A DNA stretch of 64,000 nucleotides from Candidatus Eiseniibacteriota bacterium (GTDB taxonomy: Bacteria; Desulfobacterota; Binatia; DP-6). The position numbers were made by a program, and so were the translations under genes. Below are positions 1-24,514 of the stretch, in pieces. The notes beneath the pieces were generated by a model, which was not told where the DNA came from, made no database searches, and was given only the letters and a program-made list of their open reading frames with translations. The first letter of the stretch is position 1; each line of letters opens with the position of its first letter. The DNA lies in contig DATJZY010000107.1 of NCBI GenBank assembly GCA_035577985.1, forward strand, positions 43,475 to 107,474. The letters are read 5' to 3'.

Positions 1-723
1 GGCGCGCCGGCGATCGCGACGTCGAGCGCCGCCATGGCGTGGGCGCTCGGCTACCCGGACGGGCAGCGCGCCCCGCGCGACGAGATCGTCGCCGCGATCG
101 CACGCATCTGTCGCGCCGTGCGCGCCCCGGTCAGCGCCGACGTCGAGCGCGGATTCGGCGGCTCGCCGGCGGACGTCGGCGAGACCGTTCGCGCGATCGT
201 TCGCGCCGGCGCGATCGGCGTGAACCTCGAGGACGGGAAGGCCGCGGACGGACGGACGCTGGTTGCGCCCGACGTCCTCGCCGACAGGATCCGCGCCGCC
301 CGGCAGGCCGCCGGCGCGGAGGGCGTCCCGCTCTTCGTGAACGCGCGCATCGATACCTACTTCGTCCCGGCTCCCGATCCGGCCGCGCGGTTCAAGGACA
401 CGCTCGCGCGTGCCGCCCGCTACGTCGACGCCGGAGCCGACGGCATCTTCGTTCCCGGTCTCGCGGATCTCGCCGAGATCGGCGAGCTCGTTCGCGCCGT
501 GCCGCGACCGGTGAACATCCTCGCCTGGCCCGGTGCCCCGACCGTCCCCGCCCTCGCCGCCGTCGGCGTCCGCCGCGTGAGCGTCGGCTGCAGCCCCATG
601 CAGGCCGTTCTCGGCCTCACCCGAAGGATCGGCCGCGAGCTCTTGAGCGCCGGCACGTACGACGCGATGGCGGGCGACTCCATCTCCGTCGCGGACGCGA
701 ACGCGCTCTTCGCCAGCCGCTGA
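1..723 (+). CDS. Isocitrate lyase/PEP mutase family protein (carboxyvinyl-carboxyphosphonate phosphorylmutase / methylisocitrate lyase-like), 5' partial
   Basis: The ORF track shows a 229 aa ORF starting at 34. The motifs VERGFGG, GVNLEDG and the overall layout match the ICL/PEPM TIM-barrel family. The first ~60 residues of the family are missing and the frame stays open to position 1, so the gene starts upstream of the window. Confidence 0.7.
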   Translation, partial: GAPAIATSSAAMAWALGYPDGQRAPRDEIVAAIARICRAVRAPVSADVERGFGGSPADVGETVRAIVRAGAIGVNLEDGKAADGRTLVAPDVLADRIRAARQAAGAEGVPLFVNARIDTYFVPAPDPAARFKDTLARAARYVDAGADGIFVPGLADLAEIGELVRAVPRPVNILAWPGAPTVPALAAVGVRRVSVGCSPMQAVLGLTRRIGRELLSAGTYDAMAGDSISVADANALFASR

Positions 724-740
724 ACGGCGGCGTCGATACC

Positions 741-869
741 GCGAGGTCGGCGGGGGCCAGGGCGCAGGCGCCTGCGAAGCGGCGCGACGAAACGTCGGGG
801 CCGTGACGAACCAAATGTGTTGTCGCGCGGCGTAGCCGAAGCCAGCGCCCTGGCCCCCGCCGACCTCGC
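741..869. repeat. Perfect 25-bp inverted repeat with ~79-bp spacer (nested palindrome) in a convergent intergenic region
   Basis: The arm gcgaggtcggcgggggccagggcgc at 741-765 has its exact reverse complement gcgccctggcccccgccgacctcgc at 845-869. The spacer contains an inner inverted repeat, gcgcgac...gtcgcgc. The element lies between the PEPM-family gene and the SCO1 gene. Confidence 0.65.
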
Positions 870-888
870 GACGCGCGCCCCGCCGTCG

Positions 889-1572
889 TCACCGCTTCGC
901 GACTGGCTCGCGCAGTACCGTCCGCACGTCGTTGAGGATGAGGTCGGGGTGCAGGAACCCCACGCTGTACACGTTCCGCACGCGGTGCTCGCCGTCGACC
1001 AGGAAGATCTTGAGCACGTGCCGGAAGAGTCCCGTCCACGAGCCGTCGGCGCGGCGGAGCTTGCCGACCGGCTGGCCGAAGTCGTCGAGCAGCGGTTGCA
1101 GGGCGGCGTCGTCCTGCGTCGTGACGAAGTACCAGTCGGCACCGGCCTCGTGCAGGCGGCGGGTCGCGGCCATGCGCGCGGGCGTGTCGCGTTCGGGGTC
1201 GAAGCTGACGCTCACGAGCGCGACCTTGCCGCGCAGCTCCGGGTCGTCGGCGACGGCACGGTCGATCCGGTGCAGGGCGGCGGTGCTGACCGGACACCCG
1301 GCGGCCTCGACGCACGTCGTGTAGACGAACGCGACGATCGCCACGCGATTTCCGGCCAGCGCGAAGAGCGTCGTCGCCGCGCCGTCGTCCGCGAGTACCG
1401 GGTGGTCCGAGACCGTCTTGATCGGCGGTAGCTCGTAGCTGCCGGGGGGCGGCGGCGCGTACTCCGGGACGAACGTGCCGACGCCGTAGGTGTACGCGTA
1501 GTCCGACGGATCGAGCGCCGCGGCCGCGGTCGCGACCGCGAGCGCCAGCGCCGCGATGCAGGCTCGGGTCAT
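889..1572 (-). CDS. SCO1/SenC family copper chaperone (thioredoxin-like)
   Basis: This is the C-terminal 227 aa of the spurious 1839 aa ORF 889..6408. It has an N-terminal signal/TM segment (MTRACIAALALAVATAAA), a CxxxC-like site (TTCVEAAGCP) and the SCO1 fold signature FVYTTC...VSFDPERDTP. The ATG sits at rc 1570-1572 and overlaps the TGA of the upstream SBP56 gene (ATGA). Confidence 0.8.
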   Translation of the reverse strand: MTRACIAALALAVATAAAALDPSDYAYTYGVGTFVPEYAPPPPGSYELPPIKTVSDHPVLADDGAATTLFALAGNRVAIVAFVYTTCVEAAGCPVSTAALHRIDRAVADDPELRGKVALVSVSFDPERDTPARMAATRRLHEAGADWYFVTTQDDAALQPLLDDFGQPVGKLRRADGSWTGLFRHVLKIFLVDGEHRVRNVYSVGFLHPDLILNDVRTVLREPVAKR

Positions 1573-2864
1573 CTGCGCGCGACGGCGCGCGCGGGCTCGG
1601 CCTCGCTGTAGATCTGGTTCTTGTAGAACTGGTCCTGCCCGAAGTGCATGTGGTGCGGGCGGCCGAGCCCCTCTTTCGCGAAGTCGATCCGGAACAGCGG
1701 GTGGAGCTTCTTGCCGTCGAAGCGGTACGCCGCCAGGAACTGCTCGTCGTCCTTGCCCTTCTTGTCCCACTTCGCCAGCAGTGACGACGTGAAGTACAGG
1801 CGCTCGCCGTCCCACGTCTCCGACACCATGTTCAGCTGCGAGCCGACGTGCTCCTCGGTCACGAGCTTCGGATGGTGCGGGTCGGAGACGTCGTAGATGC
1901 GGCACATGCCGTCCATCATCGAGTCGACGAACAGGAAGCGATCGTCTGCCGAGATGCTGATGTCGACCGGCAGCGGGATCTTCTTCGGGTCGCCGATGTC
2001 GGCGACGGCGCTCGCCTTGAACGTGCCGTCCGGGAGCTGCTCGATGAGCCAGATCTTCGACGTGAGGGCGGTCGACGTGAACGCGTAGTTGTGGCGCGGC
2101 TGCAGCGCCCAACGGATCTCGAGCGGCGCACCCGGGACCTCGAGCGTCTGGATGGGCTTGCGGGCGTGGAAGTCCCACACGACCATCGTGTTGCCGAAGC
2201 TCTTCATGGCCTCGGCGTCGCCCATCACCGCCGACAGGTCGCGCATGTAGTTCTTCTTGCCCGTGAACGACGACGTCAGCATGCGGTTGAGCCGCGGCTG
2301 CACGCGCACGTCGTAGCCGTAGCTCGCGTCGTCCGGCAGCCACATGGTGCGGACGAACTGGCCGTCGTTGTTGTACTCGACGAGCGCCGTGCGGCCGCCC
2401 TCGTCCTTCGAGTTCGAGAGCCCGCTGATCAGCATGCGGCCGGGCAGGGCGAAGAACGTGTGCGGCCCGACGACGCCGCCGCTGTCGGCGACGAAGGTGT
2501 CGATCGTCTTCACGATCTTCGGGTGCGCGGGATCGCTCGCGATGTCGAAGACCCAGATCGTGCTCGAGTCGAGCCCGCCGGCCCACAGGTAGCGGCGATC
2601 GTCGCTGAAGCCGGCGTGGTGCGCTTCGTGTCGGCCGCCGACCGACGCGGTCGAGACGACCTTGCCGTAGGTCGGCGTGCCGGGGCGCGCGCCGATCGTG
2701 ACGAGCTTGTCGGAGCCGTCGCCCACCCCCTCGATGCCGAGTGTCCAGGCGTAGACGTAGTCCTCCTGCCCGGTGATCTTCGGCATGTAGGGCGACATGC
2801 ACGTCTCGTCGGCGTGCGCGAGCGTGGCGGCGAGCACGATGAGGGTCGACGCGATTCGCATCAT
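1569..2864 (-). CDS. Selenium-binding protein 56 family protein (methanethiol oxidase MtoX-like), periplasmic
   Basis: The 431 aa ORF starts with a signal peptide (MMRIASTLIVLAATLAHADE). Similarity to the SBP56 family runs the full length, with beta-propeller-like repeats and many His/Asp residues. Confidence 0.85.
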   Translation of the reverse strand: MMRIASTLIVLAATLAHADETCMSPYMPKITGQEDYVYAWTLGIEGVGDGSDKLVTIGARPGTPTYGKVVSTASVGGRHEAHHAGFSDDRRYLWAGGLDSSTIWVFDIASDPAHPKIVKTIDTFVADSGGVVGPHTFFALPGRMLISGLSNSKDEGGRTALVEYNNDGQFVRTMWLPDDASYGYDVRVQPRLNRMLTSSFTGKKNYMRDLSAVMGDAEAMKSFGNTMVVWDFHARKPIQTLEVPGAPLEIRWALQPRHNYAFTSTALTSKIWLIEQLPDGTFKASAVADIGDPKKIPLPVDISISADDRFLFVDSMMDGMCRIYDVSDPHHPKLVTEEHVGSQLNMVSETWDGERLYFTSSLLAKWDKKGKDDEQFLAAYRFDGKKLHPLFRIDFAKEGLGRPHHMHFGQDQFYKNQIYSEAEPARAVARR

Positions 2865-2895
2865 GATCCCGACGCATATTAGGTTCGCGTCGCCG

Positions 2896-3798
2896 ATGAC
2901 AAGACCCGACGTCCGGGTGGGGACGGCGTCCTGGACGGAGAAGACGCTGCTCGAGAGCGGTGCCTTCTATCCGCCCACCGCGCGCACGGCCGAGCAGCGC
3001 CTGCGGTTCTACGCGCAGCGATTCGGCGTCGTCGAGGTGGACGCGACGTACTACGCGCTGCCGTCGGCGCGGAACGCCGCGGCATGGGTCGAACGCACGC
3101 CCGCCGGGTTCCTCTTCGGCGTGAAGGCGTTCGCCGCCATGACGGGACACCCGGTCGAGCCGACGCGTCTCGATCGCGATCTGCAGGCGGCGCTCCCGGC
3201 GGCGATGCGCCGAGCCCGCCAGCTCCACGCCCGCGCGCTGCCCGCCGACGTCGTCGCCGAGATCTGGCAGCGCTTCCGCGCGAACCTGGAGCCGCTGGTC
3301 GTCGCCGGCAAGCTCGCGTACGTCCTGCTGCAGATGCCGCCGTGGTTCCGACCCGGAGCCGAGAGCTGGCAGCAGCTCGACGACGCGGCGGCGCGCCTGC
3401 CGGGCTTGCCGTGTGCGGTCGAGTTCCGGGAAGCCGGCTGGCTCTCGGAGGGGCGCGCCGACGACACGCTCGAGCGCCTGCGCGAGCGGGGGCTCGCCTA
3501 CGTCTGCGTCGACGAGCCGCAGGGCACCGCGGCGAGCGTCCCGCCGGTGGCTGCGTCCACGTCCGACGCGCTCGCGGTCGTGCGGTTCCACGGCCGGCGG
3601 CGGGAGACGTGGACGCGCGCCGGCGCGCCCACGACCGAGCGCTTCCGCTACCTCTACCAGACCGGCGAGCTCGCCGAGTGGGTGCCCCGCATCCGGACCC
3701 TGGCGAAGGCGAGCCGGCGCGTGCTCGTCCTCATGAACAACTGCTACCGCGACTACGCGGTGCAGAACGCGCAGGACCTGGCGGCCCTGCTCGCCTAG
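2896..3798 (+). CDS. DUF72 (YecE-like) family protein
   Basis: The track ORF is 2797..3798. The conserved DUF72 N-terminus (RVGTASWTEKTLLESGAFYPPTARTAEQRLRFYAQRFGVVEVDATYYALP) begins at the ATG at 2896. The start is uncertain because that ATG lies only 31 bp from the divergent SBP56 start. Confidence 0.75.
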   Translation: MTRPDVRVGTASWTEKTLLESGAFYPPTARTAEQRLRFYAQRFGVVEVDATYYALPSARNAAAWVERTPAGFLFGVKAFAAMTGHPVEPTRLDRDLQAALPAAMRRARQLHARALPADVVAEIWQRFRANLEPLVVAGKLAYVLLQMPPWFRPGAESWQQLDDAAARLPGLPCAVEFREAGWLSEGRADDTLERLRERGLAYVCVDEPQGTAASVPPVAASTSDALAVVRFHGRRRETWTRAGAPTTERFRYLYQTGELAEWVPRIRTLAKASRRVLVLMNNCYRDYAVQNAQDLAALLA

Positions 3799-4598
3799 GG
3801 CTCGACGCCGAAGAGGCGCGCGAAGTTCTCGCTCATGCGCGTTGCGACCTCGGCCTCGGGAACGCCCCACAGCTCCGCCGCGTAGGCCGCGGTGCCCGCG
3901 ATCGTGGCGGGCTCGTTGCGCTCCTCGCGGTTGGGCGACAGATATGGGCAGTCGGTCTCGAGCAGCAGCCGCTCGCGCGGCAACGTCTGCAGCATGCGCG
4001 TGAAGCTCTCCGAACGCCGCGCGTTGGCGGGGATCGAGAAGTAGTGGCCGCGCTCTGCGATCTGTCGCGCCAGGTTCACCTTGCCGCCGAAGCAGTGCCA
4101 GTTGACCCGCGTCGCGCCCAGCTCCTCCAACACCTCGAGCGCGCGGCGCTCGCGCTTGCGCGTGTGGATGATGATCGGCTTTCCGGCATCGAGGGCGATG
4201 CGGACGAGGGCGCGGAAGGCTGCCTCCTGCTTCTCCCAGAGCGACTCCGGAACCCAGTAGCCGTCGAGTCCGATCTCGCCGACCGCGATCGCTTCGCCCG
4301 CGTGCTCGCGCACCCAGGCGATCCCCTCGTCGGCGGCGACGGGCTCCTCGTCGCGCGGGTACTCGACGCCCATCGTCACCATGTCCGCGAGCACCGTGTC
4401 GACCGGATAGAAGCCGAAGGCGGGCTTCACGACCGGGTGGCGCGCGGCGAGCGTGCGCGTCGCCTCGTTGTCGCGCGGGTTGAGGCCGTTCGACACGATC
4501 GTCGTCAGCCCCGCGGCGGTCGCGCGCGCGACGATCGCGTCGATGTCCGGCAGCAGCTTGCGGTGCGTGAGATGCGCGTGGACGTCGGCGAGGCCCAT
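3795..4598 (-). CDS. TatD family metal-dependent hydrolase
   Basis: The 267 aa ORF carries the TatD motifs DVHAHL, HCFGG and LLETDCPYL. Confidence 0.9.
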   Translation of the reverse strand: MGLADVHAHLTHRKLLPDIDAIVARATAAGLTTIVSNGLNPRDNEATRTLAARHPVVKPAFGFYPVDTVLADMVTMGVEYPRDEEPVAADEGIAWVREHAGEAIAVGEIGLDGYWVPESLWEKQEAAFRALVRIALDAGKPIIIHTRKRERRALEVLEELGATRVNWHCFGGKVNLARQIAERGHYFSIPANARRSESFTRMLQTLPRERLLLETDCPYLSPNREERNEPATIAGTAAYAAELWGVPEAEVATRMSENFARLFGVEP

Positions 4599-4610
4599 CG
4601 CGAGACTCTC

Positions 4611-6947
4611 TCACCCGCTCGCGGCGACGGACGGCATCGGAGAGACGACGGGCGTCGATTCGTGGCCGAAGATGAAGCGCGGCCGGGTGCGCAGCACGAG
4701 CACGGGCATGAGCGAGAGCGCCGCGAAGCACGAGAGCAGCATCGCGAGCGGCATGAGGGTGCCGAAGAGGCGCATGCCGAGGTACGGCGAGATGGCTTCG
4801 ACCGAGAACCCGGCGCCGATCGACGCGGCGACGAAGAGCACGGCGCGGCCGGACGTCCTGAGTGCGATGCCGAACGCTTCGGCGTCGGTCGCCGAGCGCT
4901 TCCGCTCCTCGCGGAGCCGATACAGGAAGTAGATGGCGTAGTCGGCGCCGATGCCGGCCGCCATGGAGATGACGGACGACGACCCCATGTCGAACCGCAC
5001 GCCCGTCCAGCCGAGGATGCCGAAGAGCTCGATCACGGTCACGACGATCGGACAGACGACGTACAGCCCACCCGTCGCCGAGCGCATGATGGTCGAAGAG
5101 ATGGCGTAGATCGCGAGCAGCACGACGACCATGTTCACGAGCTTCCCGTAGGTCGTGTGCTCGTTCACGGCGAGGATCGTCGGTCCCGCGCCGCCGGCGA
5201 CCAGCACCTTCACGCCGTCGGGCGGCGGATGGTCGCGGAGCCACGCCTCGGTGTGACGGACGAGCGGACCCACCAGCGCCGAGTCGTCGTCGGTGAGGTA
5301 CGCCATGACGATCGCCTTCGTCTGCGCGCGATCCACGAACCGCTCGAAGGCCGGCGAGTCGCCGAGGAACATGAGCTGCGAGACCAGCTCCTGGTCGTCG
5401 GGAACGCGATACGGGTTCGGCGCATCCGCCGCGAACGTCTTGTGGAGCGTCTTCACGAGATCGGCGAGCGACGCCGTGCGCAGCACGAGCGGGTCCTTCT
5501 CGAGCTCGGCCTGCATGGCCGCCATGTGCTGCAGGAAGGGAACCGTCTTCGCGCTGCCCTCGGCTCCCTCGTAGAGGATCGTCATCGTGACCGTGCCGGG
5601 GAAGTGCTTCTGGATCTCGTCCAGATGCACGCGCGGGAGGCTCCCCTTCGGCATGTACTCGCGCGTCGGGCCGAACGTCCGGATGCGCGCGATGCCGACC
5701 AGCGAGAGCACGAGCGCGATCGCCGTGCCGATCAGGACGGGGCGCCCGTTGCCGCGCAGGATCGCGCGCTCGAGCGTCGCGAGGACCGCGGTCGTGACGC
5801 CGCCTTCGGGCGGAACGTGCTTCGGGGCGGGCAGCACCGCCCGCAACGCCGGGATCAGCGTGAGCTCGAGGAAGACGGCACTGCCGATGCCGTAGGCGCA
5901 CGAGAGCCCGAAGTTCGCGATGGACCGGACGCCGAAGAGCGCGAGCGACGCGAAGCCGAGCGCGGCGGTGGCGCCGGCCGCGACCATGACCGGACCGATC
6001 TTCACGGTCGACTCGATGACGGCGGCGCGGTTGTCCCGCGTCCGCACGACCTCTTCCACGTACCGCTTCAACATCTGGGCCGAATGCGCGGCCGCGACCG
6101 CGATGAGGAGGATCGGCACCGCCGCGTTCCAGCCGTCGATGGGAATGCCCGTATGTCCCTGCAGGCCGAGCCCCCACACGGTGGAGAGCGTCGCCGTGAG
6201 CATGGGGATGAACATGCCCTGGAAGCTCCGGAACGAGACGAGCAGCATCACCGCGATCACGAGGAACGTGACGGGGATCCGGCGCATGAGCATGGCAGAC
6301 TGGTCGAGGTCGGTCAGGGCGAAGGTGGGCTCGCCGGCGATCCAGACGTCGACGCCGCGGTCGTGATACGGCTCGGCCAGTGCGAGGACGGCATTCGCGA
6401 CCTCCCACGACTGTTGCTTGCCCTCGAAGAAGTCGAGGACGACGATCGCGGCCTTCTGGTCGGGCGTGACGAGCATGCCCCGGAGCTGCGGATCACTCTC
6501 GACCTTCGCCCGCAGACGCGCGATCTCCTCGGGCGTCTTCGGGGCGTCGCGCATGAGGTAGTCGACCTTGATCGAGCCGCCGGACTCCTCGACGTAGCGG
6601 ACCGCCGGGGCGGCGAGGCTCACCACGTTCTGCGCCATGATGTCGGGGAGGCGGAGCGCCGCCAGCGTGAAGTCGCGCACGATCTCGAGCACCGGCGTCT
6701 GCCAGACCTCGCCCTCGCGCGGCACGATCGCGACGATGAGGGTGCGCCGGCCGCCGAACTCGGCCCGGATCTCCTTGTCGATCTGCACGAAGGGATGATT
6801 CGCGGGGAGACTCGCCTCGACGCTGAACTCGCTGCGGAGCTTGGTCATGCCGCTGCCGACCAGCACGGTCAGGGCGGCGACGACGGCGAGCACGAGCCAG
6901 CGGAATCGGACCAGGAGGCGGACGTAGCGTTCGAAGGCGGTGGCCAT
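4611..6947 (-). CDS. MMPL/RND-superfamily membrane exporter
   Basis: The track ORF is 4611..6983. The call has two 6-TM bundles, each followed by a periplasmic loop, which is the MMPL (HpnN-like) architecture. I placed the start at MATAFERYV (rc ATG 6945-6947). Confidence 0.8.
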   Translation of the reverse strand: MATAFERYVRLLVRFRWLVLAVVAALTVLVGSGMTKLRSEFSVEASLPANHPFVQIDKEIRAEFGGRRTLIVAIVPREGEVWQTPVLEIVRDFTLAALRLPDIMAQNVVSLAAPAVRYVEESGGSIKVDYLMRDAPKTPEEIARLRAKVESDPQLRGMLVTPDQKAAIVVLDFFEGKQQSWEVANAVLALAEPYHDRGVDVWIAGEPTFALTDLDQSAMLMRRIPVTFLVIAVMLLVSFRSFQGMFIPMLTATLSTVWGLGLQGHTGIPIDGWNAAVPILLIAVAAAHSAQMLKRYVEEVVRTRDNRAAVIESTVKIGPVMVAAGATAALGFASLALFGVRSIANFGLSCAYGIGSAVFLELTLIPALRAVLPAPKHVPPEGGVTTAVLATLERAILRGNGRPVLIGTAIALVLSLVGIARIRTFGPTREYMPKGSLPRVHLDEIQKHFPGTVTMTILYEGAEGSAKTVPFLQHMAAMQAELEKDPLVLRTASLADLVKTLHKTFAADAPNPYRVPDDQELVSQLMFLGDSPAFERFVDRAQTKAIVMAYLTDDDSALVGPLVRHTEAWLRDHPPPDGVKVLVAGGAGPTILAVNEHTTYGKLVNMVVVLLAIYAISSTIMRSATGGLYVVCPIVVTVIELFGILGWTGVRFDMGSSSVISMAAGIGADYAIYFLYRLREERKRSATDAEAFGIALRTSGRAVLFVAASIGAGFSVEAISPYLGMRLFGTLMPLAMLLSCFAALSLMPVLVLRTRPRFIFGHESTPVVSPMPSVAASG

Positions 6948-7017
6948 GTGAAGCGAGAATCCTTGTCGGGTTCGCCGCCGCAATGCAAACCGCCACGGCG
7001 TTCGCTAGGCTTCGCCC

Positions 7018-8190: not shown

Positions 8191-8792
8191 AGACCTACGG
8201 GGTCGCGCTCGTGCTGGGTCTCGCGCTCGCAGGCGGCAACTACGCGGTGCTGGGCCAGCGCCCGGAGGTCGCGGGGTGCGCGCCGTGCCTCGCGCTGCTC
8301 CTCGCGGGCCCGCTCGTTCTCGCGCTCGCCGTCGCGGCGGTCGCGGGAACCGGCGCGTCGGCGTCCGGGACGGCGAGCGCAGTGGCCGTACCGTCGACCA
8401 AGCCCGCCGAGCCGGCGGAGAACGCGGCGCTCCGCCTGCTCGCGACGCTGCAAGAGGAAGGGCGGCTCGTCGACTTCTTCAGCGAGGACATCGCGCCGTA
8501 CACGGACGAGCAGATCGGCGCGGCCACGCGCGGCATCCACGCGAGCTGCCGCAAGGCGCTCGAAGGCGCCGTCGCGATCGAGCCCATCATGCCGGGCGAC
8601 GAAGGCGCGACGGTGACGGTTCCCGCGGGCTTCGATCCGGCGGCCATCCGGCTGGTCGGGAACGTCAGCGGCACCCCGCCGTTCACGGGCGTCCTCCGCC
8701 ACGCGGGCTGGCGCGTGAAGTCGGTGAACCTCCCGCCGCGCACCGGTCAGGATCCGAAGGTCGTCGCGCCGGCGGAGGTCGAGATCGGGTGA
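8187..8792 (+). CDS. Membrane-anchored protein with a DUF2760-like C-terminal domain
   Basis: This is the ~201 aa tail of the spurious ORF 3084..8792. It has an N-terminal TM region (MKTYGVALVLGLALAGG...LLLAGPLVLALAVAAVAG), an Ala/Ser/Thr/Pro-rich linker and a conserved ~120 aa C-terminal domain. Its stop overlaps the GTG start of the Hsp70-like gene. The DUF2760 assignment is from memory and was not HMM-verified. Confidence 0.55.
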   Translation: MKTYGVALVLGLALAGGNYAVLGQRPEVAGCAPCLALLLAGPLVLALAVAAVAGTGASASGTASAVAVPSTKPAEPAENAALRLLATLQEEGRLVDFFSEDIAPYTDEQIGAATRGIHASCRKALEGAVAIEPIMPGDEGATVTVPAGFDPAAIRLVGNVSGTPPFTGVLRHAGWRVKSVNLPPRTGQDPKVVAPAEVEIG

Positions 8793-10570
8793 GCGCGCGA
8801 TACGTCGTCGGCATCGACCTCGGGACGACGAACTCGGTCGTCGCGTACGTCGACACGAGCGCCCTCGCACCGGACGCCGAGGCGCACGCGGCGGCGGTGC
8901 TCCCGATCCCGCAGGTCGTGAAGGCGGGCCTCGTCGAGGCGCACGACCGGCTGCCGTCCTTCCTCTATCTGCCCGCGGCAGGCGAGCTGCCGAAGGGCAG
9001 CCTGGCGCTCCCGTGGGGCGAAGCCGACCTGGCGGTGGGCGCGCTCGCGCGCTCGCGCGGCGCCGAGGTGCCCGGGCGCGTCGTGTCGTCGGCGAAGTCG
9101 TGGCTCTGCTCGGTCGGCGTCGATCCGCGCGGTCCGATCCTGCCGTGGAACGCGCCGGCGGACGTCGCGAAGGTTTCGGCCGTCGACGCGCAGGCGGCCT
9201 ACCTCGCGCATCTGCGCGCGGCGTGGGATGCCGCGATGCCGGCGCCGCTCGCGAAGCAGGAGCTCTATCTCGCCGTGCCGGCGTCGTTCGACGCCGCGGC
9301 GCGCGAGCTCACCGTCCGCGCGGCGACGCAGGCCGGCCTTCCGACCGTGCACCTCGTCGAGGAGCCGCAGGCGGCGTTCTACGCCTGGCTCGCCGCCACG
9401 CGCGGCGGCTGGCGCACGGAGGTGCACGTTGGCGACGTGATCCTCGTCTGCGACGTCGGCGGCGGAACGACCGATCTCACGCTCGTCGCGGTCGGCGACG
9501 AGAGCGGATCGCTCGGCCTCGAGCGCAAGGCGGTCGGCGACCACATCCTGCTCGGCGGCGACAACATGGACCTCGCGCTCGCACACGCGGTGTGCGAGCG
9601 TCTCGCGGCGCAGGGGACGTCGCTCGACGAGTGGCAGCTCCGCGGCCTCGTGCACGCCTGCCGGGAGGCGAAGGAGAAGCTCCTCGCCGATCCGACACGC
9701 GACAAGGAGCCGGTCGTCGTGCTCGGGCGCTCGCGCAAGGTGATCGGCGGTGCCGTGCGCACCGACCTCGGCCGCGTCGAGGTCGAAGCGACGCTCATCG
9801 ACGGGTTCTTCCCGAAGGTGGGTCCCGAGGCGCGGCCGCACGCGACACGGCGCGTGGGCCTCCAGGAGATCGGCCTGCCGTACGCGAGCGACGCGGCGAT
9901 CACGCGGCACATCGCGGCGTTCGTCGCGCGCCACCACGACGTCGCGCCGGAGGGAGTCTCCGCCGTGCTGTTCAACGGCGGCGTCATGCACGCGCCGCGC
10001 TTCCGCGAGCGGCTCGCGTCGGTCCTGCGCTCGTGGCGCGGCGGCGACGTCCGCGTGCTCGCCGGCGCGCATCCCGACCTCGCGGTCGCCGAGGGCGCAG
10101 CGGCCTACGGCCTCGCACGGCGCGGCCGCGGCGTGCGCATCCGCGGCGGCACTGCGCGCGCGTACTACGTCGGCATCGAGGTGGCGGCGCCGGCGGTGCC
10201 GGGCATGGCGGCGCCCGTGAAGGCGCTCTGCGTGGCGCCGTTCGGCATGGAGGAAGGCACCGAGATCGCGGTGCCGGACGCGGAGTTCGGGCTCGTCGTC
10301 GGTGAGCCGGCTGAGTTCCGGTTCTTCGGCTCCTCGGTCCGCCGCGACGACGTCGCCGGGACCATCGTCGAGCGCTGGCAGCCCGGCGAGCTGGAAGAGC
10401 TGGCGCCGATCGAGGCCGCGCTCACGGCGAAGGATCAGGACGGGCGCACGGTGCCGGTGCACCTGCGGGCACACGCGACCGGGATCGGCACCCTCGAGCT
10501 CTACTGCGTCGCCCGCGACGGCAAGGGGCGCTGGAAGCTCGAGCTCAACGTGCGGCAGGCCGCGCCCTGA
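8789..10570 (+). CDS. Non-canonical Hsp70-family ATPase (DnaK paralog, NBD-like), copy A
   Basis: The track ORF is 8276..10570. The call is a 593 aa protein starting at the GTG at 8789. It has the Hsp70 phosphate-1 motif GIDLGTTNS, the phosphate-2 motif VCDVGGGTTD and the connect motif EEPQAAFYAW. A canonical substrate-binding domain is not evident. Its stop overlaps the ATG of copy B. Confidence 0.85.
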   Translation: MSARYVVGIDLGTTNSVVAYVDTSALAPDAEAHAAAVLPIPQVVKAGLVEAHDRLPSFLYLPAAGELPKGSLALPWGEADLAVGALARSRGAEVPGRVVSSAKSWLCSVGVDPRGPILPWNAPADVAKVSAVDAQAAYLAHLRAAWDAAMPAPLAKQELYLAVPASFDAAARELTVRAATQAGLPTVHLVEEPQAAFYAWLAATRGGWRTEVHVGDVILVCDVGGGTTDLTLVAVGDESGSLGLERKAVGDHILLGGDNMDLALAHAVCERLAAQGTSLDEWQLRGLVHACREAKEKLLADPTRDKEPVVVLGRSRKVIGGAVRTDLGRVEVEATLIDGFFPKVGPEARPHATRRVGLQEIGLPYASDAAITRHIAAFVARHHDVAPEGVSAVLFNGGVMHAPRFRERLASVLRSWRGGDVRVLAGAHPDLAVAEGAAAYGLARRGRGVRIRGGTARAYYVGIEVAAPAVPGMAAPVKALCVAPFGMEEGTEIAVPDAEFGLVVGEPAEFRFFGSSVRRDDVAGTIVERWQPGELEELAPIEAALTAKDQDGRTVPVHLRAHATGIGTLELYCVARDGKGRWKLELNVRQAAP

Positions 10571-13290
10571 TGGCGGCGCGCTACCTCGTCGGCATCGACC
10601 TCGGCACGACCAACACCGCCTGCGCGTACGTCGACACGCAGGCGGGTCGTACGATCCGGGTCTTCCCGGTGCCGCAGCTGGTGGCGCCCGGGAAGGTCGA
10701 CGCGCGCGAGACGCTGCCGTCGTTCTGCTACCTCGCCGGCGCGCACGATCTGCCGCCGGGGAGTCTCGATCTGCCGTGGGCGGCGGGACGCAGCTACTGC
10801 GTCGGCGTGCTCGCCCGCGACCAGGGCGCGCGTGTGTCGGGCCGGCTCGTGGGCTCGGCCAAGTCCTGGCTCTGTCACGGCGGCGTCGATCGCACCGCGG
10901 CGATCCTGCCGTGGGGCGCCGCCGACGACGTGCCGAAGCTGTCGCCCGTCGAAGCGTCGGCGCGCACGCTCAGGCACCTCCGCGAGGCGTGGGACGCGCG
11001 CTTTCCCGAGCCGCTCGCGGAGCAGGACATCGTGCTCACCGTGCCGGCGTCGTTCGACGAGGTCGCGCGCGAGCTGACCCTCGAGGCCGCGGCCGCGGCC
11101 GGCATCCCGCGCCTCGTGCTGCTCGAGGAGCCGCAGGCGGCGTTCTACGCCTGGCTGGTCGCGCACGAGCGCGACTGGAAGGCGCGCATCGCCGCGACGC
11201 CGCTCGTGCTGGTCGTCGACGTGGGCGGCGGCACGACCGACTTCTCGCTCGTCGCCGCGCGCGGCAGCCGTGGCGAGCTCGGGCTCGAGCGCGTCGCGGT
11301 GGGCGAGCACCTGCTGCTCGGCGGCGACAACATGGACCTGGCGCTGGCGCGGACGGCCGAAGCGCGCCTCGTCCCCGGCGGGCAGCTCGACCCGCCGCGC
11401 TTCCATCTCCTCGTGAGCCAGTGCCGGGCGGCCAAGGAGGCCATGCTCTCGAACGATGCGGTCCGCGACGTGCGCGTCACGGTCGCCGGGCGCGGCAGCG
11501 GCGTCGTCGGCGGCACACTCGCGACCTCGGTCACGCGCGACGAGCTCGACCGCCTGGTGCTCGACGGGTTCTTTCCGCGCGTCGACGCCGACGCGCGGCC
11601 GCAGCGCGGCGCGAGCGGGCTTCGCGAGTGGGGGTTGCCGTTCGCCGCCGACGCCGCGATCACGCGTCACCTGGCGGAGTTCCTGGCCCGCCAGCGCGAC
11701 GCCGCCGGAGAAGGCGCGCATGCGCTCGTCCGGCCCGACGCGCTCCTCTTCAACGGCGGCGCGCTCGAGCCCGCCGCCGTGCGCGAGCGCATCGCCGCCA
11801 TCGTCGGTGCGTGGCACGAGCCCGGCGGCGACTGGCGCCCGGCGGTGCTCGATGCCGACTCGCTCCAGCTCGCCGTCGCGCGGGGCGCGGCGTACTACGG
11901 CCTGGTCCGGCGCGGACAAGGCGTGCGCATCGGCAGCGGCGCGGCGCGCACGTACTATCTGGGCCTCCAGGACGAGCAGCTCCTCTGCGTCGTGCCACGC
12001 GGCATGGAAGAGGGCGAGACGGCCGACCTCTCGGGTCGCGAGCTCGAGCTCACGACGAACCGTCCCGTCGCCTTCCCGCTCTTCACCGCGACCGATCGCA
12101 CGGGGGAGCACGCCGGCGACCTCGTCGACGCGCGCCCCGACGCGCTGACCGCGCTGCCGCCGCTGCGCACCGTCGTCCGCTTCGGGAAGAAGCTCGAGGA
12201 GCGATCGCTGCCGGTGCACGTGGAGGTTCGCCTCTCCGAGATCGGCACGCTCGAGCTCTCGCTCAAGTCGCGCTCGACCGAGCATCGCTGGCGGCTCGAG
12301 CTGCGGCTGCGCGATACGGTCGCGGACGAGGCCGTACCCGCCGAGCAGGCCGCGATCGTCGTCGATCCGGCGCGGGTCGCCGAAGCCGAACGCCTGCTCC
12401 GCGAGACCTTCGAAGGTGCCGACGATCCCGTCTCGCTGATGCGCCGGCTCGAGACCGCGCTCGACGCCGGCCGCGACGCCTGGCCGCTCGCTACGATCCG
12501 CGCGTCGTGGGACGTCCTGTGGACCCTCGAGCCGCGCCGCGCGCGGAGCCCGGCGCACGAGGCGCGGTGGCTGAACCTGGCGGGGTTCCTCCTCCGCCCC
12601 GGCTTCGGCGATCCCGGCGACGAGATCCGCATCGACAAGCTCTGGCGCGTGCTCGGCACCGAGCTGCGCCACCCGCGCTCCGTGCAGTGCCGCGCCGAGA
12701 TGTGGAACCTCTGGAAGCGCGTCGCGGGCGGGCTCGGCGCGCGCCAGCAGCAGCACGTGCTCGAGCTCGTGCGGCCGCAGCTCACGGGACGCGGCAGGAC
12801 GAAGGGCCCCAAGGCCGCGCCGCAGGAGCTGCGCGAGATGTGGCAGGCGGTCGGCGGGTGCGAGCGGCTGGCGGCGTCGGCGCGCGCCGAGCTGGCGCTG
12901 GTGCTCGCGCAGACGGTCGCGAAGGGCAAGGCGACCGACCAGGAGGCGTGGGCGCTCGCGCGCGTCGCTGCGCGCGCGCCGATCGCAGGCCCGGCGAACT
13001 GCGTCGTGCCGCCTCGCGCGGCGGCGGACGTGGTCGAGCAGCTGCTCGGCGCGGCCTGGACGCGCCCCGACGCCACGGCGTTCGCGCTGGCCCAGGTCGC
13101 ACGCATGACGGGCGATCGCGAGCGGGACCTCGATGCCGCGCTGCGCGATCGCGTCGCGCTCCGTCTCGAGCGCGAGCCCGACGGCGCACGGCTCGCGCGG
13201 CTCGTGCGCGAAGTCGTGCCGCTCGAGGCGCGCGAGGAGGCGCGGCTCCTCGACGAGTCGCTGCCCGCCGGATTACGTCTACGGGGCTGA
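10570..13290 (+). CDS. Non-canonical Hsp70-family ATPase, copy B, with ~400 aa helical C-terminal extension
   Basis: The 906 aa ORF has the motifs GIDLGTTNTACAYV, VVDVGGGTTD and EEPQAAFYAW, and is clearly paralogous to copy A. The C-terminal ~400 aa (from about ETFEGADDPVSLMRRLETALD onward) belongs to no family I recognise. Confidence 0.85.
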   Translation: MAARYLVGIDLGTTNTACAYVDTQAGRTIRVFPVPQLVAPGKVDARETLPSFCYLAGAHDLPPGSLDLPWAAGRSYCVGVLARDQGARVSGRLVGSAKSWLCHGGVDRTAAILPWGAADDVPKLSPVEASARTLRHLREAWDARFPEPLAEQDIVLTVPASFDEVARELTLEAAAAAGIPRLVLLEEPQAAFYAWLVAHERDWKARIAATPLVLVVDVGGGTTDFSLVAARGSRGELGLERVAVGEHLLLGGDNMDLALARTAEARLVPGGQLDPPRFHLLVSQCRAAKEAMLSNDAVRDVRVTVAGRGSGVVGGTLATSVTRDELDRLVLDGFFPRVDADARPQRGASGLREWGLPFAADAAITRHLAEFLARQRDAAGEGAHALVRPDALLFNGGALEPAAVRERIAAIVGAWHEPGGDWRPAVLDADSLQLAVARGAAYYGLVRRGQGVRIGSGAARTYYLGLQDEQLLCVVPRGMEEGETADLSGRELELTTNRPVAFPLFTATDRTGEHAGDLVDARPDALTALPPLRTVVRFGKKLEERSLPVHVEVRLSEIGTLELSLKSRSTEHRWRLELRLRDTVADEAVPAEQAAIVVDPARVAEAERLLRETFEGADDPVSLMRRLETALDAGRDAWPLATIRASWDVLWTLEPRRARSPAHEARWLNLAGFLLRPGFGDPGDEIRIDKLWRVLGTELRHPRSVQCRAEMWNLWKRVAGGLGARQQQHVLELVRPQLTGRGRTKGPKAAPQELREMWQAVGGCERLAASARAELALVLAQTVAKGKATDQEAWALARVAARAPIAGPANCVVPPRAAADVVEQLLGAAWTRPDATAFALAQVARMTGDRERDLDAALRDRVALRLEREPDGARLARLVREVVPLEAREEARLLDESLPAGLRLRG

Positions 13291-18198: not shown

Positions 18199-19442
18199 CA
18201 GCACACCCCCGCCGCGCGCAGCTCGACCACCATCGCCTCGGTGACGCCGATCTCCGCCAGCACGTCGCGCGTGTGCTCGCCGAGCCGCGGCGCCGGCCGC
18301 CGGATGCCGACCGCCGCGCCGCCCGACGCCGACGTCGTCTTCGCGAACGATCCCGGGTAGCGCAGCCGGCCACGCCCGGGGTTGTCGATCTCGACGAAGA
18401 ACTCGCGCGACGCGAGCTGCTCGGACGCGTCGATCTCGCGCGCCGTGTTCGCCGGTGCGAGCATGAGGTTGCGTTCGACGGCGGCGCGGAACAGCTCGGT
18501 CATGGTCTTCGAGAGGAAGAAGGCGCCGAACTCGGCCGAAAGCGCGTCGACCTCGGCCTGCGTGAGCAGGTTGTGGTTGTAGGTCTTCCAGTCGGTCGCC
18601 TTGAGCGCGGCGGACGCCATGCCGTGCTCGTCCATGAGCTTCACCATCGCGATCAAGCCCGGAACGCGCGCCGGGCCGCCACGCAGCGCGAACGAGACGA
18701 AGCCGTCCTTGCACGGCCATATCTCACGCTGCTCGCTCTTCGGCTGGCGGAAGAACGCTCCCGCGCGGGCGCCGCGGCTGCCGTTCATCTTGAACATGGA
18801 CGCGGTCGCCATGTTCGGCATGATCATGGCCGCCTGCATGGCGACGTCGACGTGCTGGCCGCGTCCCGTCCGCTCGCGCGCCACGAGCGCGAACGTGACC
18901 GCGAGCGCCGCCTCGATGCTGGCGTGATAGTACGCGACCGGCAGCGAGCAGCGCACCGGCGCGCGATCCGGATCGCCGGTGCAGTGCAGGTTGCCGGAGG
19001 TGGCGAGCGTGGTGAGGTCCGAGCCCCGCCAGCCCGCATACGGCCCGCTCTGTCCCCACGGCGTGAGCGAGCACAGCACCAGGCGCGGGTTGCGGGCGTG
19101 TAGCGTGTCCCACCCGAGGCCGCGCGCCGCCATCGTGCCGGGCGCTTCGGTCTCGACGACGACGTCGGCACGCCCGGCGAGCGCGAGGAAGAGGTCACGG
19201 CCGCGCGGCGTCGTCACGTCGAGCGTGATGCCCCGCTTGGAGGTGTTGTAGGCGAGCCAGACGAGCGAGCGTTCGGGATCGTCGGCGTGGCCCCAGAAGG
19301 GACCGCGGCGCCGGACGGGATCGCCCGAGGGCGGCTCGACCTTCACGACGTCGGCGCCGAGATCGCCCAGGAGCTTGCCCGCGAAGTGGCCGGGCTCGCC
19401 GGTGAGATCGAGCACACGGACGCCACTCAGGTTGCCGTTCAT
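18198..19442 (-). CDS. CoA-transferase family III (CaiB/BaiF) protein
   Basis: The 414 aa ORF begins VRVLDLTGEPGHFAGKLLGDLGADVVKVE. Its stop overlaps the start of the downstream CoA-transferase gene, indicating a two-gene operon. Confidence 0.85.
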   Translation of the reverse strand: MNGNLSGVRVLDLTGEPGHFAGKLLGDLGADVVKVEPPSGDPVRRRGPFWGHADDPERSLVWLAYNTSKRGITLDVTTPRGRDLFLALAGRADVVVETEAPGTMAARGLGWDTLHARNPRLVLCSLTPWGQSGPYAGWRGSDLTTLATSGNLHCTGDPDRAPVRCSLPVAYYHASIEAALAVTFALVARERTGRGQHVDVAMQAAMIMPNMATASMFKMNGSRGARAGAFFRQPKSEQREIWPCKDGFVSFALRGGPARVPGLIAMVKLMDEHGMASAALKATDWKTYNHNLLTQAEVDALSAEFGAFFLSKTMTELFRAAVERNLMLAPANTAREIDASEQLASREFFVEIDNPGRGRLRYPGSFAKTTSASGGAAVGIRRPAPRLGEHTRDVLAEIGVTEAMVVELRAAGVC

Positions 19443-19512
19443 CGCGCGCGCTAGCTACCCGCGGCGTCGCCGGGGTGTCAAGGTTCGGTGCCCTGCGATA
19501 CAAGCCCCGTCC

Positions 19513-20439
19513 ATGCGCATCGGCATCGGCATCGGCGAGATCACCGCGGCTCCGGGAACGATCGACAACCTCGTCGCGCAGGCGAAGCAGGCGGAGGCGG
19601 ACGGCTTCGCGAGCGGCTGGCTCGCGAACATCTTCGGCATGGACGCCATCATGGCGGCCGCCGTCTGCGCCCGCGAGACCTCGCGCATGGAGCTCGGCAC
19701 GGCGGTCGTGCCGACGTATCCGCGCCACCCGGTGGCGATGGCGCAGGCCGCGCTCTCGGCGGCCGCCATCTCGCGCGGGCGTTTCAGCCTCGGCATCGGC
19801 CTCTCGCACCAGATCGTCATCGAAGGGATGCTCGGCCTCTCGTTCGCCAAGCCGTACTCGCACATGCGGGAGTACCTCCAGGTGCTGTGTCCGCTCGTAC
19901 GCACCGGGCAGGTGAGTCACAATGGGTCGGAGTACCGCGTCAACGCGAACATGTCGGTCCCGGGGGCGAAGCCGTGCCCGATCCTGGTGGCGGCGCTCGC
20001 GCCCAAGATGCTGGCGCTCGCGGGACGGGAAACCGACGGAACGATCACGTGGATGACCGGCCCCAAGACGATCGCCGAGCACACGGCGCCGCGTATTCGC
20101 GAGGCGGCCGCGGCGGCGAATCGGCCGGAGCCGCGCGTCGTCGTGGGCCTGCCGATCGCGGTCACGAAATCGGTCGAGGCGGCGCGCGCGTCGGCGGCGA
20201 AGACGTTCCAGGTCTATGGCATGCTCCCGTCGTACCGCGCGATGCTGGATCGGGAAGGCCTCGAGGGTCCGTCCGACGTCGCGATCGTCGGCGACGAGAG
20301 CCAGGTGGGGGCGGCAATCGAGCGTCTCGGCGCGGCCGGCGCGACGGATCTCCTGGCCGTCCCGTTCACCGTTCAGGGCGATCCGGAGACCGTTCAGCGC
20401 ACTCGAGCCTTCCTCGCACGCCGCGCACGCGGTATCTGA
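19513..20439 (+). CDS. LLM-class F420-dependent oxidoreductase (luciferase-like)
   Basis: The track ORF is 19375..20439. The call starts at the ATG at 19513 (MRIGIGIGE...). It has the TIM-barrel LLM layout of the F420-dependent subfamily. Confidence 0.8.
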   Translation: MRIGIGIGEITAAPGTIDNLVAQAKQAEADGFASGWLANIFGMDAIMAAAVCARETSRMELGTAVVPTYPRHPVAMAQAALSAAAISRGRFSLGIGLSHQIVIEGMLGLSFAKPYSHMREYLQVLCPLVRTGQVSHNGSEYRVNANMSVPGAKPCPILVAALAPKMLALAGRETDGTITWMTGPKTIAEHTAPRIREAAAAANRPEPRVVVGLPIAVTKSVEAARASAAKTFQVYGMLPSYRAMLDREGLEGPSDVAIVGDESQVGAAIERLGAAGATDLLAVPFTVQGDPETVQRTRAFLARRARGI

Positions 20440-23179: not shown

Positions 23180-23842
23180 ATGCCTCGCCGCGCCGCCGTT
23201 CGCTCCAGCGCCACTCGCCCGATCGTACGCCGGCGCGAGCGCGGTCGACAGGAGCGCGGCGTGCGCACCGAGGAGGCGATCCTGCAGGCGACGCTGCGGC
23301 TCGTCGCCGCGCGCGGCATCCACGGCATGTCGCTCGACCTCCTCGCCGAGGAGGTCGGCGTCGCGAAGAGCTCGATCCTCTGGCACTTCGGCTCGAAGGA
23401 GGAGCTGCTCCTGCGCGTCGCCGAGCGCGTGCTCGAAGAGGTGGCGCATGGCCCGGCGCGCGAGATCCTGGCGCTGCCGACGCTCGGCGCGCGCGAGGAC
23501 GCGACCTGGCGCTTCTTCGCCGAGACGCTGCGCGAACGGCCCGAGCTGCGCCGCCTGGTCCTGTGGCTCCTCTTCGAATGCGTCGAGGAGCGCCCGGAGC
23601 TGCGGACGCGTCTCCAGCAGCTCTACCGGTCGATCCGCGACATGTTCGAGGCGGGTCTGCGCGAGATCGTTCCCGACGCCGCGCAGCGCCGGCGCCTCGC
23701 CATCATCACGGTCGCGACCTTCGACGGCATCTTCCTGCAGTGGCTCCTCGAGCCCGACGCGATCGACATCGAAGCGCTGCACCGCGAGCTGCGGGCGCTC
23801 AACGAGCGTACCCACCCGGTGCGCCGACGAAAGGACGGCTGA
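23180..23842 (+). CDS. TetR/AcrR family transcriptional regulator
   Basis: The 220 aa ORF has the TetR N-terminal HTH (ILQATLRLVAARGIHGMSLDLLAEEVGVAKSSILWHFGSKEELL). Confidence 0.85.
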   Translation: MPRRAAVRSSATRPIVRRRERGRQERGVRTEEAILQATLRLVAARGIHGMSLDLLAEEVGVAKSSILWHFGSKEELLLRVAERVLEEVAHGPAREILALPTLGAREDATWRFFAETLRERPELRRLVLWLLFECVEERPELRTRLQQLYRSIRDMFEAGLREIVPDAAQRRRLAIITVATFDGIFLQWLLEPDAIDIEALHRELRALNERTHPVRRRKDG

Positions 23843-23843
23843 C

Positions 23844-24494
23844 ATGGACCAGACGAACCAGATGCCGGTGGACCTGACGGCGTTCCGCGAAGTCGTACGC
23901 CATCCGCAGGCCCACGCGGTGATCCTCGGCAACTACCGCATCGGCGAGTACGCCGGCGTCGTCGCGCTCCGCCGCCTCCTGGGCGAGATGCAGCCCGAGG
24001 GCAAGCTGCACGCCGCGATGGAGATCCACTATCGCGACGAGGATCGGCACTCGAAGCTCTTCACGGACTGGATGCAGCGCATCGGCGTCGAGCCGCCGCC
24101 CCTGCCGACCGAGGTCGAAGGCTACTTCGCGAACAGCCCGGAGGAGTTCCAGCAGCAGCGCAAGCTGGTCGAGACGCTGCCGCCCGAGATGCGACGGATC
24201 CTCGTGTTCGCCGGGATCAACGCGATCGAGCGGCTCGCCTACAACCAGTTCGAGAACCACCTCCTCTGCCTCGATCGTCGTGAGGACATCGACGCGCTCA
24301 AGAGCGTCATGGACGAGGAGAAGTTCCACCTCTCCTACGTCGAGCACGAGCTCGATCGCCAGTGCAAAGGCGAGTTCGGCGGCTTCGTGACCCAGGCGCT
24401 CGAGCAGGCGCGCGCACAGTTCGCGATCTTCCAGCAGACGCGGCGCGCGCAGGCGGCGCAGGCCATCGAGCGCGTGCTCGGCGGCGGCGCCTGA
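23844..24494 (+). CDS. Ferritin-like diiron-carboxylate domain protein
   Basis: The start is the ATG at 23844, 1 nt after the TetR stop. The 216 aa protein has two E..H motifs (EIHYRDEDRHSKLF and EEKFHLSYVEHEL) typical of diiron four-helix-bundle proteins. Confidence 0.6.
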   Translation: MDQTNQMPVDLTAFREVVRHPQAHAVILGNYRIGEYAGVVALRRLLGEMQPEGKLHAAMEIHYRDEDRHSKLFTDWMQRIGVEPPPLPTEVEGYFANSPEEFQQQRKLVETLPPEMRRILVFAGINAIERLAYNQFENHLLCLDRREDIDALKSVMDEEKFHLSYVEHELDRQCKGEFGGFVTQALEQARAQFAIFQQTRRAQAAQAIERVLGGGA

Positions 24495-24514
24495 GCACAG
24501 CGAAGGAGGCCACG

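Follow-up and report, generated by a model that had tools for sequence, protein, structure and literature searches.

A mtoX-SCO1 gene pair in a Candidatus Binatia-like genome: a probable methanethiol oxidase and its putative copper chaperone at a locus with neither a MauG gene nor the tryptophan proposed as MauG target

Near the left edge of a stretch of 64,000 nt from a Candidatus Binatia-like genome (hereafter the window), two minus-strand genes adjoin, one for a protein of the SBP56 family and one for a protein of the SCO1/SenC family. The question raised by this locus is whether the two genes encode a copper-dependent methanethiol oxidase (MTO; gene mtoX) and the chaperone that supplies its copper, and how such an enzyme would be matured. 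We consider it likely, with good confidence, that they encode a Sec-exported, copper-dependent MTO together with a periplasmic copper chaperone of the SCO type whose translation is coupled to that of mtoX, in a form that is independent of MauG. The pair is an already-known gene pair, found here in an uncultured soil Binatia bacterium; one feature of the locus is unusual, i.e. it lacks both a MauG gene and the Trp residue that has been proposed as MauG target. The features in question are:

1569-2864, minus strand: mtoX, SBP56-family methanethiol oxidase, predicted periplasmic; 431 aa (430 aa from the second Met); G+C content at third codon positions (GC3) 0.97

889-1572, minus strand: SCO1/SenC-family gene, putative periplasmic copper chaperone, 227 aa, with a hydrophobic N-terminal signal or anchor

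1569-1572, minus strand: ATGA stop/start overlap of mtoX and SCO1, read from the sequence and also called in an independent assembly

The SBP56 protein matches the Pfam family SBP56 (E 1.8e-48) and scores 675.9 bits against the NCBIfam MtoX equivalog model NF052453, for which the curated cutoff is 650 bits. The model was calibrated with MtoX of Ruegeria pomeroyi (759 bits), a Hyphomicrobiaceae homologue (756 bits), Binatia relatives (696-699 bits), Myxococcota relatives (656 bits) and a Phaeobacter non-MtoX SBP56 protein (151 bits); with scores of 656-759 against 151 bits, the cutoff splits off the MtoX clade cleanly. The identity to the genetically validated R. pomeroyi mtoX product is 60.8% (E 1e-162), which lies within the limits that Eyice et al. 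set for orthologs (52% identity or more to a characterised MtoX, with E no higher than 1e-151; PMC5739008), and the identity to four non-MtoX SBP56 outgroup proteins is 28-32%. In a distance-based neighbour-joining tree, rooted with these four proteins and calculated without bootstrap, the window protein falls within the MtoX clade as sister to a protein of a Candidatus Binatia metagenome-assembled genome (MAG). Among genomes, the protein is best matched by MAGs of uncultured Candidatus Binatia (Binatota), at 76-86% identity, with Myxococcota and other 'delta' MAGs next; thousands of homologues at 75-87% identity were found in soil metagenomes. Among solved structures, only that of Sulfolobus tokodaii SBP56 (2ECE) matches by sequence (E 1.4e-17). 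By these sequence comparisons the window SBP56 protein is a member of the MtoX clade, and its activity and copper dependence are inferred by homology.

The functional features reported for characterised MtoX enzymes were located in the window protein as follows:

2811-2864, minus strand: predicted Sec-type signal peptide of MtoX, residues 1-18 (MMRIASTLIVLAATLAHA), with cleavage predicted before D19

2799-2801, minus strand: codon of Cys22 in the motif TCMSPYM, equivalent to the catalytic Cys28 of R. pomeroyi MtoX

2616-2621, minus strand: codons of His82 and His83, proposed copper ligands (Hyphomicrobium His89/90)

The N-terminus, read by eye, comprises a positive n-region, a 12-residue hydrophobic core and an AHA site, and the predicted mature start (MMRIASTLIVLAATLAHA/DETCMSPY) agrees with the sequenced N-terminus of purified Hyphomicrobium MTO (DETXNSPF); MtoX is thus predicted to be periplasmic, and the signal peptide ascribed to the SBP56 protein by an earlier sequence-only reading of this DNA is borne out in its n, h and AXA regions. 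The column of Cys22 holds Cys in 75 of 81 aligned relatives, and the C28S mutant of R. pomeroyi MtoX has no activity (PMC10936201). The remaining two of the four proposed copper ligands, assigned by Eyice et al. (Fig. S12) to His89, His90, His140 and His412 of the Hyphomicrobium enzyme, are His135 and His404 of the window protein, and at each of the four His positions the residue is unchanged in 80-81 of 81 relatives as well as in the outgroups. Trp366 is the conserved counterpart of Hyphomicrobium Trp374. Bacterial MtoX has been established as a copper enzyme by inductively coupled plasma mass spectrometry, electron paramagnetic resonance and EXAFS spectroscopy.

At 71.5% G+C, mechanical lists of open reading frames (ORFs) in the window are crowded with long spurious frames, and the SCO1 frame is listed as an ORF of 1839 aa (889-6408) because it stays open in such DNA. 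Frame analysis by GC3 backs minus-strand genes only, i.e. 1569-2864 and the 3' 684 nt of the open frame that ends at 889; the plus-strand ORFs 817-1431 and 1848-2882 were rejected as genes because they fail a filter on GC3 and on G+C at second codon positions (GC2). The junction reads, on the minus strand, ...GCC GTC GCG CGC AGA TGA CCC GAG..., with the TGA of mtoX at 1571-1569 and the ATG of SCO1 at 1572-1570; SCO1 ends with a TGA at 891-889. If translation began instead at the following in-frame start codon, a GTG at codon 77, the protein would lose both its hydrophobic N-terminus and the PGSYELPPI segment conserved in the family, so that no credible alternative to the ATG at 1572 exists. 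An independent ENA assembly with the identical protein carries the same calls (430 aa and 227 aa, 4-nt overlap). The overlap of the SBP56 stop with the SCO1/SenC ATG had been described correctly in the sequence-only reading, as was confirmed by reading the sequence directly. A 4-nt overlap is the commonest operon junction and weak evidence by itself; no Shine-Dalgarno motif lies within 15 nt upstream of the SCO1 ATG, and together with the ATGA overlap this makes translational coupling a reasonable interpretation.

Conservation of the pair was examined in 161 loci, comprising 80 genome and 80 metagenome loci around relatives and the R. pomeroyi operon as annotated. In 115 of the 126 loci whose downstream sequence extends for 900 bp or more (62/70 genome loci and 53/56 metagenome loci), the gene directly after mtoX, on the same strand, encodes a SCO1 homologue, and these loci represent several phyla. 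At 59 of 135 readable junctions (27/67 in genomes, 32/68 in metagenomes) a start codon is available at position -4 on the mtoX TGA; almost all of these belong to the Binatia/Myxococcota branch, whereas the proteobacterial operons mostly have short gaps. The recurrence of the -4 start among relatives argues that the ATGA arrangement is conserved rather than accidental; the pairing itself is likewise kept in relatives, with the SCO1 start in the window sitting at the ATGA.

The classical role of SCO proteins is at the CuA site of cytochrome oxidase, and most homologues of the window SBP56 protein carry the Joint Genome Institute (JGI) label 'selenium-binding protein 1'; from these two facts it could be argued that a generic selenium-binding protein happens to be encoded beside a cytochrome-oxidase SCO1, with adjacency and overlap both coincidental. 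We regard this as extremely improbable, and it is effectively refuted by the synteny and clade data: non-MtoX SBP56 proteins are set apart by their identity of 28-32% and the score of 151 bits on the MtoX model, SCO1 follows mtoX in the great majority of informative loci, the MtoX-linked SCO proteins share a PGSY.LP segment and a Cys loop of their own, and no cytochrome oxidase genes were found near mtoX-SCO1.

The partner protein belongs to Pfam PF02630 SCO1-SenC (43.9 bits against a gathering cutoff of 22.8, E 2.9e-11, residues 62-197), and its nearest solved relative is Bradyrhizobium ScoI, Blr1131 (4WBR; E 3e-6). Its candidate metal-binding residues are:

1291-1314, minus strand: metal-binding loop C87-VEAAG-C93-P94 of SCO1, of the form C-x5-C-P, two residues over the canonical CxxxCP

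1018-1020, minus strand: codon of His185, the third copper ligand of SCO proteins, aligned to the His of ScoI

Cys87 and Cys93 align with the Cys pair of ScoI, with a two-residue insertion between them, and the alignment of MDHTALIYLMD against FRHVLKIFLVD puts His185 opposite the His of ScoI; the column holds His in every complete MtoX-linked SCO sequence. Most of the SCO proteins linked to MtoX share the C-x5-C-P loop, that of R. pomeroyi (CGDVNGCP) among them, and the canonical CxxxCP is found in a subset from Myxococcota. By eye, the sequence shows a hydrophobic stretch at the N-terminus, MTRACIAALALAVATAAAAL, and the N-termini of homologues are comparable; the SCO1 protein is therefore predicted to be periplasmic or membrane-anchored. 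As an observation on the family, the MtoX-linked SCO proteins (L001-L081 in our set of loci) form a subfamily with a C-x-[DE]-x-x-G-C-P loop and a conserved N-terminal PGSY.LP segment; the CxxxCP of the Myxococcota subset is either reverted or retained, and the subfamily has no NCBIfam match.

SCO proteins have a thioredoxin fold, and the SCO1-like partner might thus act on Cys22 of MtoX as a periplasmic thiol:disulfide or persulfide oxidoreductase rather than as a copper donor, either by reducing an intermediate (Cys-S-S-CH3 or persulfide) or by maintaining the Cys in reduced form, much as other periplasmic proteins are served by TlpA-type thioredoxins. MtoX forms an enzyme-S-S-CH3 adduct on its N-terminal Cys and releases sulfane sulfur (PMC10936201), which implies a need for periplasmic thiol chemistry; the extended C-x5-C-P loop, the modest Pfam score of 43.9 bits and the activity of R. 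pomeroyi MtoX in Escherichia coli in the absence of a SCO partner would also fit. We consider this role unlikely. The third-ligand His, aligned with that of ScoI, is invariant in the MtoX-linked SCO proteins, whereas TlpA-like reductases lack it; moreover, some close relatives have the canonical CxxxCP, and MtoX is a copper enzyme.

Delivery of copper to MtoX by SCO1 is thus the most likely role of the partner as judged from its sequence, and the interpretation of the pair as a copper enzyme and its metallochaperone is upheld by the placement in the MtoX clade, the presence of His82/83, His135, His404 and Cys22, and the conserved pairing with SCO1. We envisage a two-gene, minus-strand operon from 2864 to 889 in which ribosomes that terminate on mtoX would probably re-initiate at SCO1, such that SCO1 would be made only when and where MtoX is made. 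Exported MtoX would convert methanethiol and O2 to formaldehyde and a reduced sulfur product, by homology, with catalysis by the N-terminal Cys and the four-His copper site; H2S/H2O2 has been reported for the reduced sulfur product, and sulfane sulfur in newer work. The thioredoxin-fold SCO1 with Cys87, Cys93 and His185 would most likely hand Cu(I) to apo-MtoX.

Several points weigh against this interpretation. The margin of the window protein over the NF052453 cutoff is just 26 bits, and MtoX has been studied so far only in Proteobacteria and, as SELENBP1, in humans, with Binatia and Myxococcota outside the assayed set. The SCO1 loop is C-x5-C-P and not the canonical CxxxCP, no NCBIfam model matches the SCO1 protein, and no genetic test of a SCO1 role in MtoX maturation was found for any organism in the literature examined. 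R. pomeroyi MtoX made alone in E. coli, i.e. without MauG or SCO1, is active (PMC10936201), and hence a chaperone is not strictly required for some activity. Coupling of SCO1 to mtoX by termination and re-initiation is inferred with the geometry of the junction as its sole basis, and a scan of positions 600-3200 yielded no promoter-like or intrinsic-terminator-like sites, including U-tract terminators.

A mauG-like gene, for which the sequence-only reading had suggested a search upstream of the window, was not found: with all six frames searched, the coding frames of the 64 kb contain no CxxCH motif, tblastn with R. pomeroyi MauG gave no match in the window, and there was none in an additional 3 kb past the left edge (ENA contig). 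Nearly all Binatia and Myxococcota relatives likewise have no MauG within 7 kb, whereas alpha- and gammaproteobacterial relatives carry it. Eyice et al. (Fig. S12) proposed Trp211 and Trp374 of the Hyphomicrobium enzyme as precursors of a cofactor, tryptophan tryptophylquinone (TTQ); this is a hypothesis and not an established requirement. The first of the two residues is replaced in the window protein:

2256-2258, minus strand: codon AAG of Lys203, at the site of the proposed TTQ Trp (Hyphomicrobium Trp211, R. pomeroyi Trp223)

The motif is TGKKNY in the window against TGWNNY, with no nearby Trp under either plausible alignment. To our knowledge, no MTO has been demonstrated to contain a TTQ cofactor. 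Over the 161 loci, the Trp211 column holds W in 74, H in 37, K in 25, R in 21, A in 3 and Y in 1, and is distributed with respect to MauG as follows:

Trp at column 211: MauG nearby in 25 loci, MauG not found nearby in 49 loci

other residue at column 211: MauG nearby in 0 loci, MauG not found nearby in 87 loci

MauG thus occurs only where Trp211 is present (25/25), in an association that is phylogenetically confounded, comprises few events and scores MauG near mtoX, while genomes could encode it elsewhere. Fitch parsimony on the neighbour-joining tree gave five independent losses of Trp, all in MauG-less clades, and no compensating column changes in more than three of these five clades. This co-variation is consistent with a functional tie of Trp211 to MauG and is a small new clue on the maturation of MtoX. 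With no MauG, and Lys in place of Trp211, the window enzyme cannot carry the proposed TTQ cofactor; this does not make it inactive, since R. pomeroyi MtoX is active in E. coli and human SELENBP1 works without MauG.

The replacements of Trp211 are biased towards H, K or R (83 of 87), a pattern that hints less at drift than at selection for a new role, and the column was lost at least five times independently, with Lys in the window. The branch, moreover, scores 656-699 bits on the NCBIfam model compared to about 757 bits for proteobacterial MtoX. On these grounds the Binatia/Myxococcota branch might be functionally shifted, i.e. act on another thiol or sulfur substrate or by another mechanism, and not be isofunctional as MTO. 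We hold such a shift to be quite improbable: the remaining functional residues are all kept, the loss of Trp is not accompanied by change in any second column, human SELENBP1 is an MTO without MauG (PMC5739008, PMC6274749), and R. pomeroyi MtoX is active in the MauG-less E. coli host, besides the above-mentioned lack of any demonstrated TTQ in an MTO.

A large soil lineage (Binatia, Myxococcota and relatives), which the window enzyme would represent, may have MauG-independent methanethiol oxidases that are unable to make the Trp-Trp (TTQ-like) cofactor, with a true maturation link between Trp211 and MauG; this wider proposal is tentative, and we lean somewhat towards doubt.

A different combination of these residues was observed in MAG proteins of Methylothermaceae/Methylococcales (L040, L041, L052, L053, L059 and L066), which score about 757 bits on the MtoX model and in which Pro replaces the catalytic Cys (DETPLSPYM) and His or Arg replaces Trp211. 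The four loci with full 7-kb flanks (L040, L041, L052 and L066) have neither SCO1 nor MauG within 7 kb; the flanks of L053 and L059 are shorter than 7 kb.

Downstream, the next gene past SCO1 is a convergent gene of the PEP-mutase family with its stop at 723, and the space between the two genes is occupied by a further feature:

740-870, no strand assigned: long imperfect palindrome, 65-nt arms (740-804 and 806-870) with a 1-nt gap, 78% complementary

This palindrome (131 nt) nearly fills the 165-nt convergent gap between the stop at 723 and the SCO1 stop at 889. Its RNA folds with -117 kcal/mol (z = -7.3), and none of 200 shuffled sequences folds as well. The hairpin is present as a single copy in the window, and blastn matched it only in the identical contig (L086); a relative (L088) has an analogous hairpin after SCO1 (-134.5 kcal/mol) without sequence similarity. 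The long hairpin would close the operon, and is probably an operon-end terminator or RNA stabiliser. At the other end, the distance from mtoX to the start of a divergent DUF72 gene is about 35-40 nt (2865-2904) and no sigma-70-like promoter was detected; the mtoX promoter would therefore overlap neighbouring coding sequence or be of a type not covered by the scan.

The genes upstream of mtoX comprise the divergent DUF72 gene, genes for a TatD-family protein and an MMPL/HAE3 transporter (minus strand), and a gene for an MFS transporter. DUF72 as a conserved partner of mtoX, as hinted by Table S7 of Eyice et al., was rejected, since it is not conserved in any of 81 genome loci; over all 160 relatives examined, too, its adjacency to mtoX is not kept. 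The MMPL/HAE3-type RND transporter gene (4611-6983, minus strand) is split from mtoX by the TatD and DUF72 genes. Three Binatia loci (L004, L009 and L054) have an MMPL gene with 67-73% identity immediately upstream of mtoX and co-oriented with it, and weaker MMPL matches (22-31%) are found at the same position in four gammaproteobacterial loci (L063, L065, L068 and L071); the MMPL transporter may be a conserved functional neighbour of mtoX that is unmentioned in the literature examined. Further along, two adjacent genes for HSP70/actin-fold ATPase-like proteins (8276-10570 and 10570-13290, plus strand; the second with a C-terminal DUF3731, 'DnaK-related') were found, and such a pair is also present upstream of mtoX in the Binatia locus L004 (69-75% identity).

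Three genes for luciferase-like oxidoreductases (19375-20439, 24362-25798 and 25880-26770, plus strand) accompany a TetR gene (23180-23842). Two of them pass the NCBIfam cutoffs for F420-dependent luciferase-like monooxygenases (TIGR03564, TIGR03619), a hint that this Binatia-like genome makes use of F420; the assignment of the luciferase-like genes to DmoA, SfnG or SsuD was rejected, as the models for these sulfur enzymes score far under their cutoffs and the genes are F420-class instead. Between them, at 20557-23088 (plus strand), lies an ORF of 843 aa with coding-like GC3 and no Pfam hit, which is overlapped by minus-strand ORFs of high GC3 (21828-22184, 22302-22652 and 22656-23036), so that the coding strand is ambiguous. 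The rest of the window encodes the HSP70-like proteins, an ABC-F ATPase, a CoA-transferase, the three F420-class luciferase-like oxidoreductases, aldehyde dehydrogenases, peptidases, a histidine kinase, a sigma-54 activator and others; no Rfam families (gathering threshold) and no tRNA genes were found in the whole 64 kb.

The sequence-only reading had also proposed that a methylotrophic or organosulfur-oxidising lifestyle would fit the other content of this DNA. This part finds no independent support in the window: no genes for methanol, methylamine or formaldehyde metabolism or for sulfur oxidation were found in the rest of it, and the luciferase-like genes are F420-class. The claim rests on published Binatota work only (PMC8262859; bioRxiv 10.1101/2023.12.06.570440), i.e. 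on a Binatota survey that predicts broad methylotrophy and use of methylated sulfur compounds, and on a 2024 preprint that reports a methanethiol oxidase gene in all seven of its Binatota MAGs.

The mtoX-SCO1/senC-mauG operon was described in 2018 for Hyphomicrobium sp. VS and R. pomeroyi DSS-3 (SPOA0269-0271; PMC5739008). The window locus shares with it the signal peptide, the DETC.SP mature N-terminus, the catalytic Cys, the four His and the second Trp, and it shares with the R. pomeroyi operon a SCO1/SenC gene immediately downstream on the same strand, with the same C-x5-C-P loop. It differs in that no mauG is present in the 64 kb, Lys replaces Trp211/Trp223, and a divergent DUF72 gene takes the place of the upstream IclR regulator; the junction is a 4-nt overlap compared to a 67-nt gap in R. 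pomeroyi, and the host is of the Binatia and not of the Proteobacteria.

Compared to the mtoX-SCO1 pairs in MAGs from Candidatus Binatia and from Myxococcota (e.g. L001, JBGQET010000100, 86% identity), the window locus is a member of the group, with the same two-gene layout, the 4-nt NTGA junction that is found in many of them, and no MauG within 7 kb. The Trp211 column is variable in this group, with Lys in the nearest relatives, and many Binatia still keep Trp211; MMPL directly precedes mtoX in L004, L009 and L054, whereas TatD and DUF72 genes lie between the two in the window. Verrucomicrobium sp. LP2A, of another phylum, is listed by Eyice et al. (Table S7) with SCO1, without MauG and with DUF72/YecE nearby; the likeness is by that listing alone, and MauG-less mtoX-SCO1 loci are thus already on record.

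Bradyrhizobium japonicum ScoI (4WBR, 4WBJ) resembles the window SCO1 in its thioredoxin-like SCO domain and in the aligned Cys pair and His. The window SCO1 differs in its weak similarity (E 3e-6), the C-x5-C-P loop and the extra conserved N-terminal PGSYELPPI segment, and the presumed client is MtoX instead of the CuA site of cytochrome oxidase. Human SELENBP1, an MTO that works without MauG, and S. tokodaii SBP56 (2ECE) share with the window protein the SBP56 family and the conserved His ligands. Both differ from it in that they are about 30% identical or lower, cytosolic, without signal peptide and without a SCO1 partner, and in that they keep a Trp in an SEW motif that the window protein lacks.

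Oxidation of methanethiol is a key step of the organic sulfur cycle. Methanethiol oxidase genes in Binatota MAGs and the adjacency of mtoX and SCO1 are already published, and the window locus alone adds little to these; its value is that it represents the Binatia/Myxococcota branch, abundant in soil, whose operon has shrunk to enzyme and copper chaperone, and that it marks the C-x5-C-P SCO subfamily as a candidate dedicated chaperone. Taken at face value, the co-variation would be the first evidence from a comparison of loci that MauG acts on Trp211 in the proteobacterial enzymes. If this is true, the modification would be dispensable in MauG-less lineages, or a basic side chain would substitute for it, and the joint retention or loss of MauG and Trp211 offers a cheap, testable handle on a MauG-made, Trp-derived cofactor in methanethiol oxidases.

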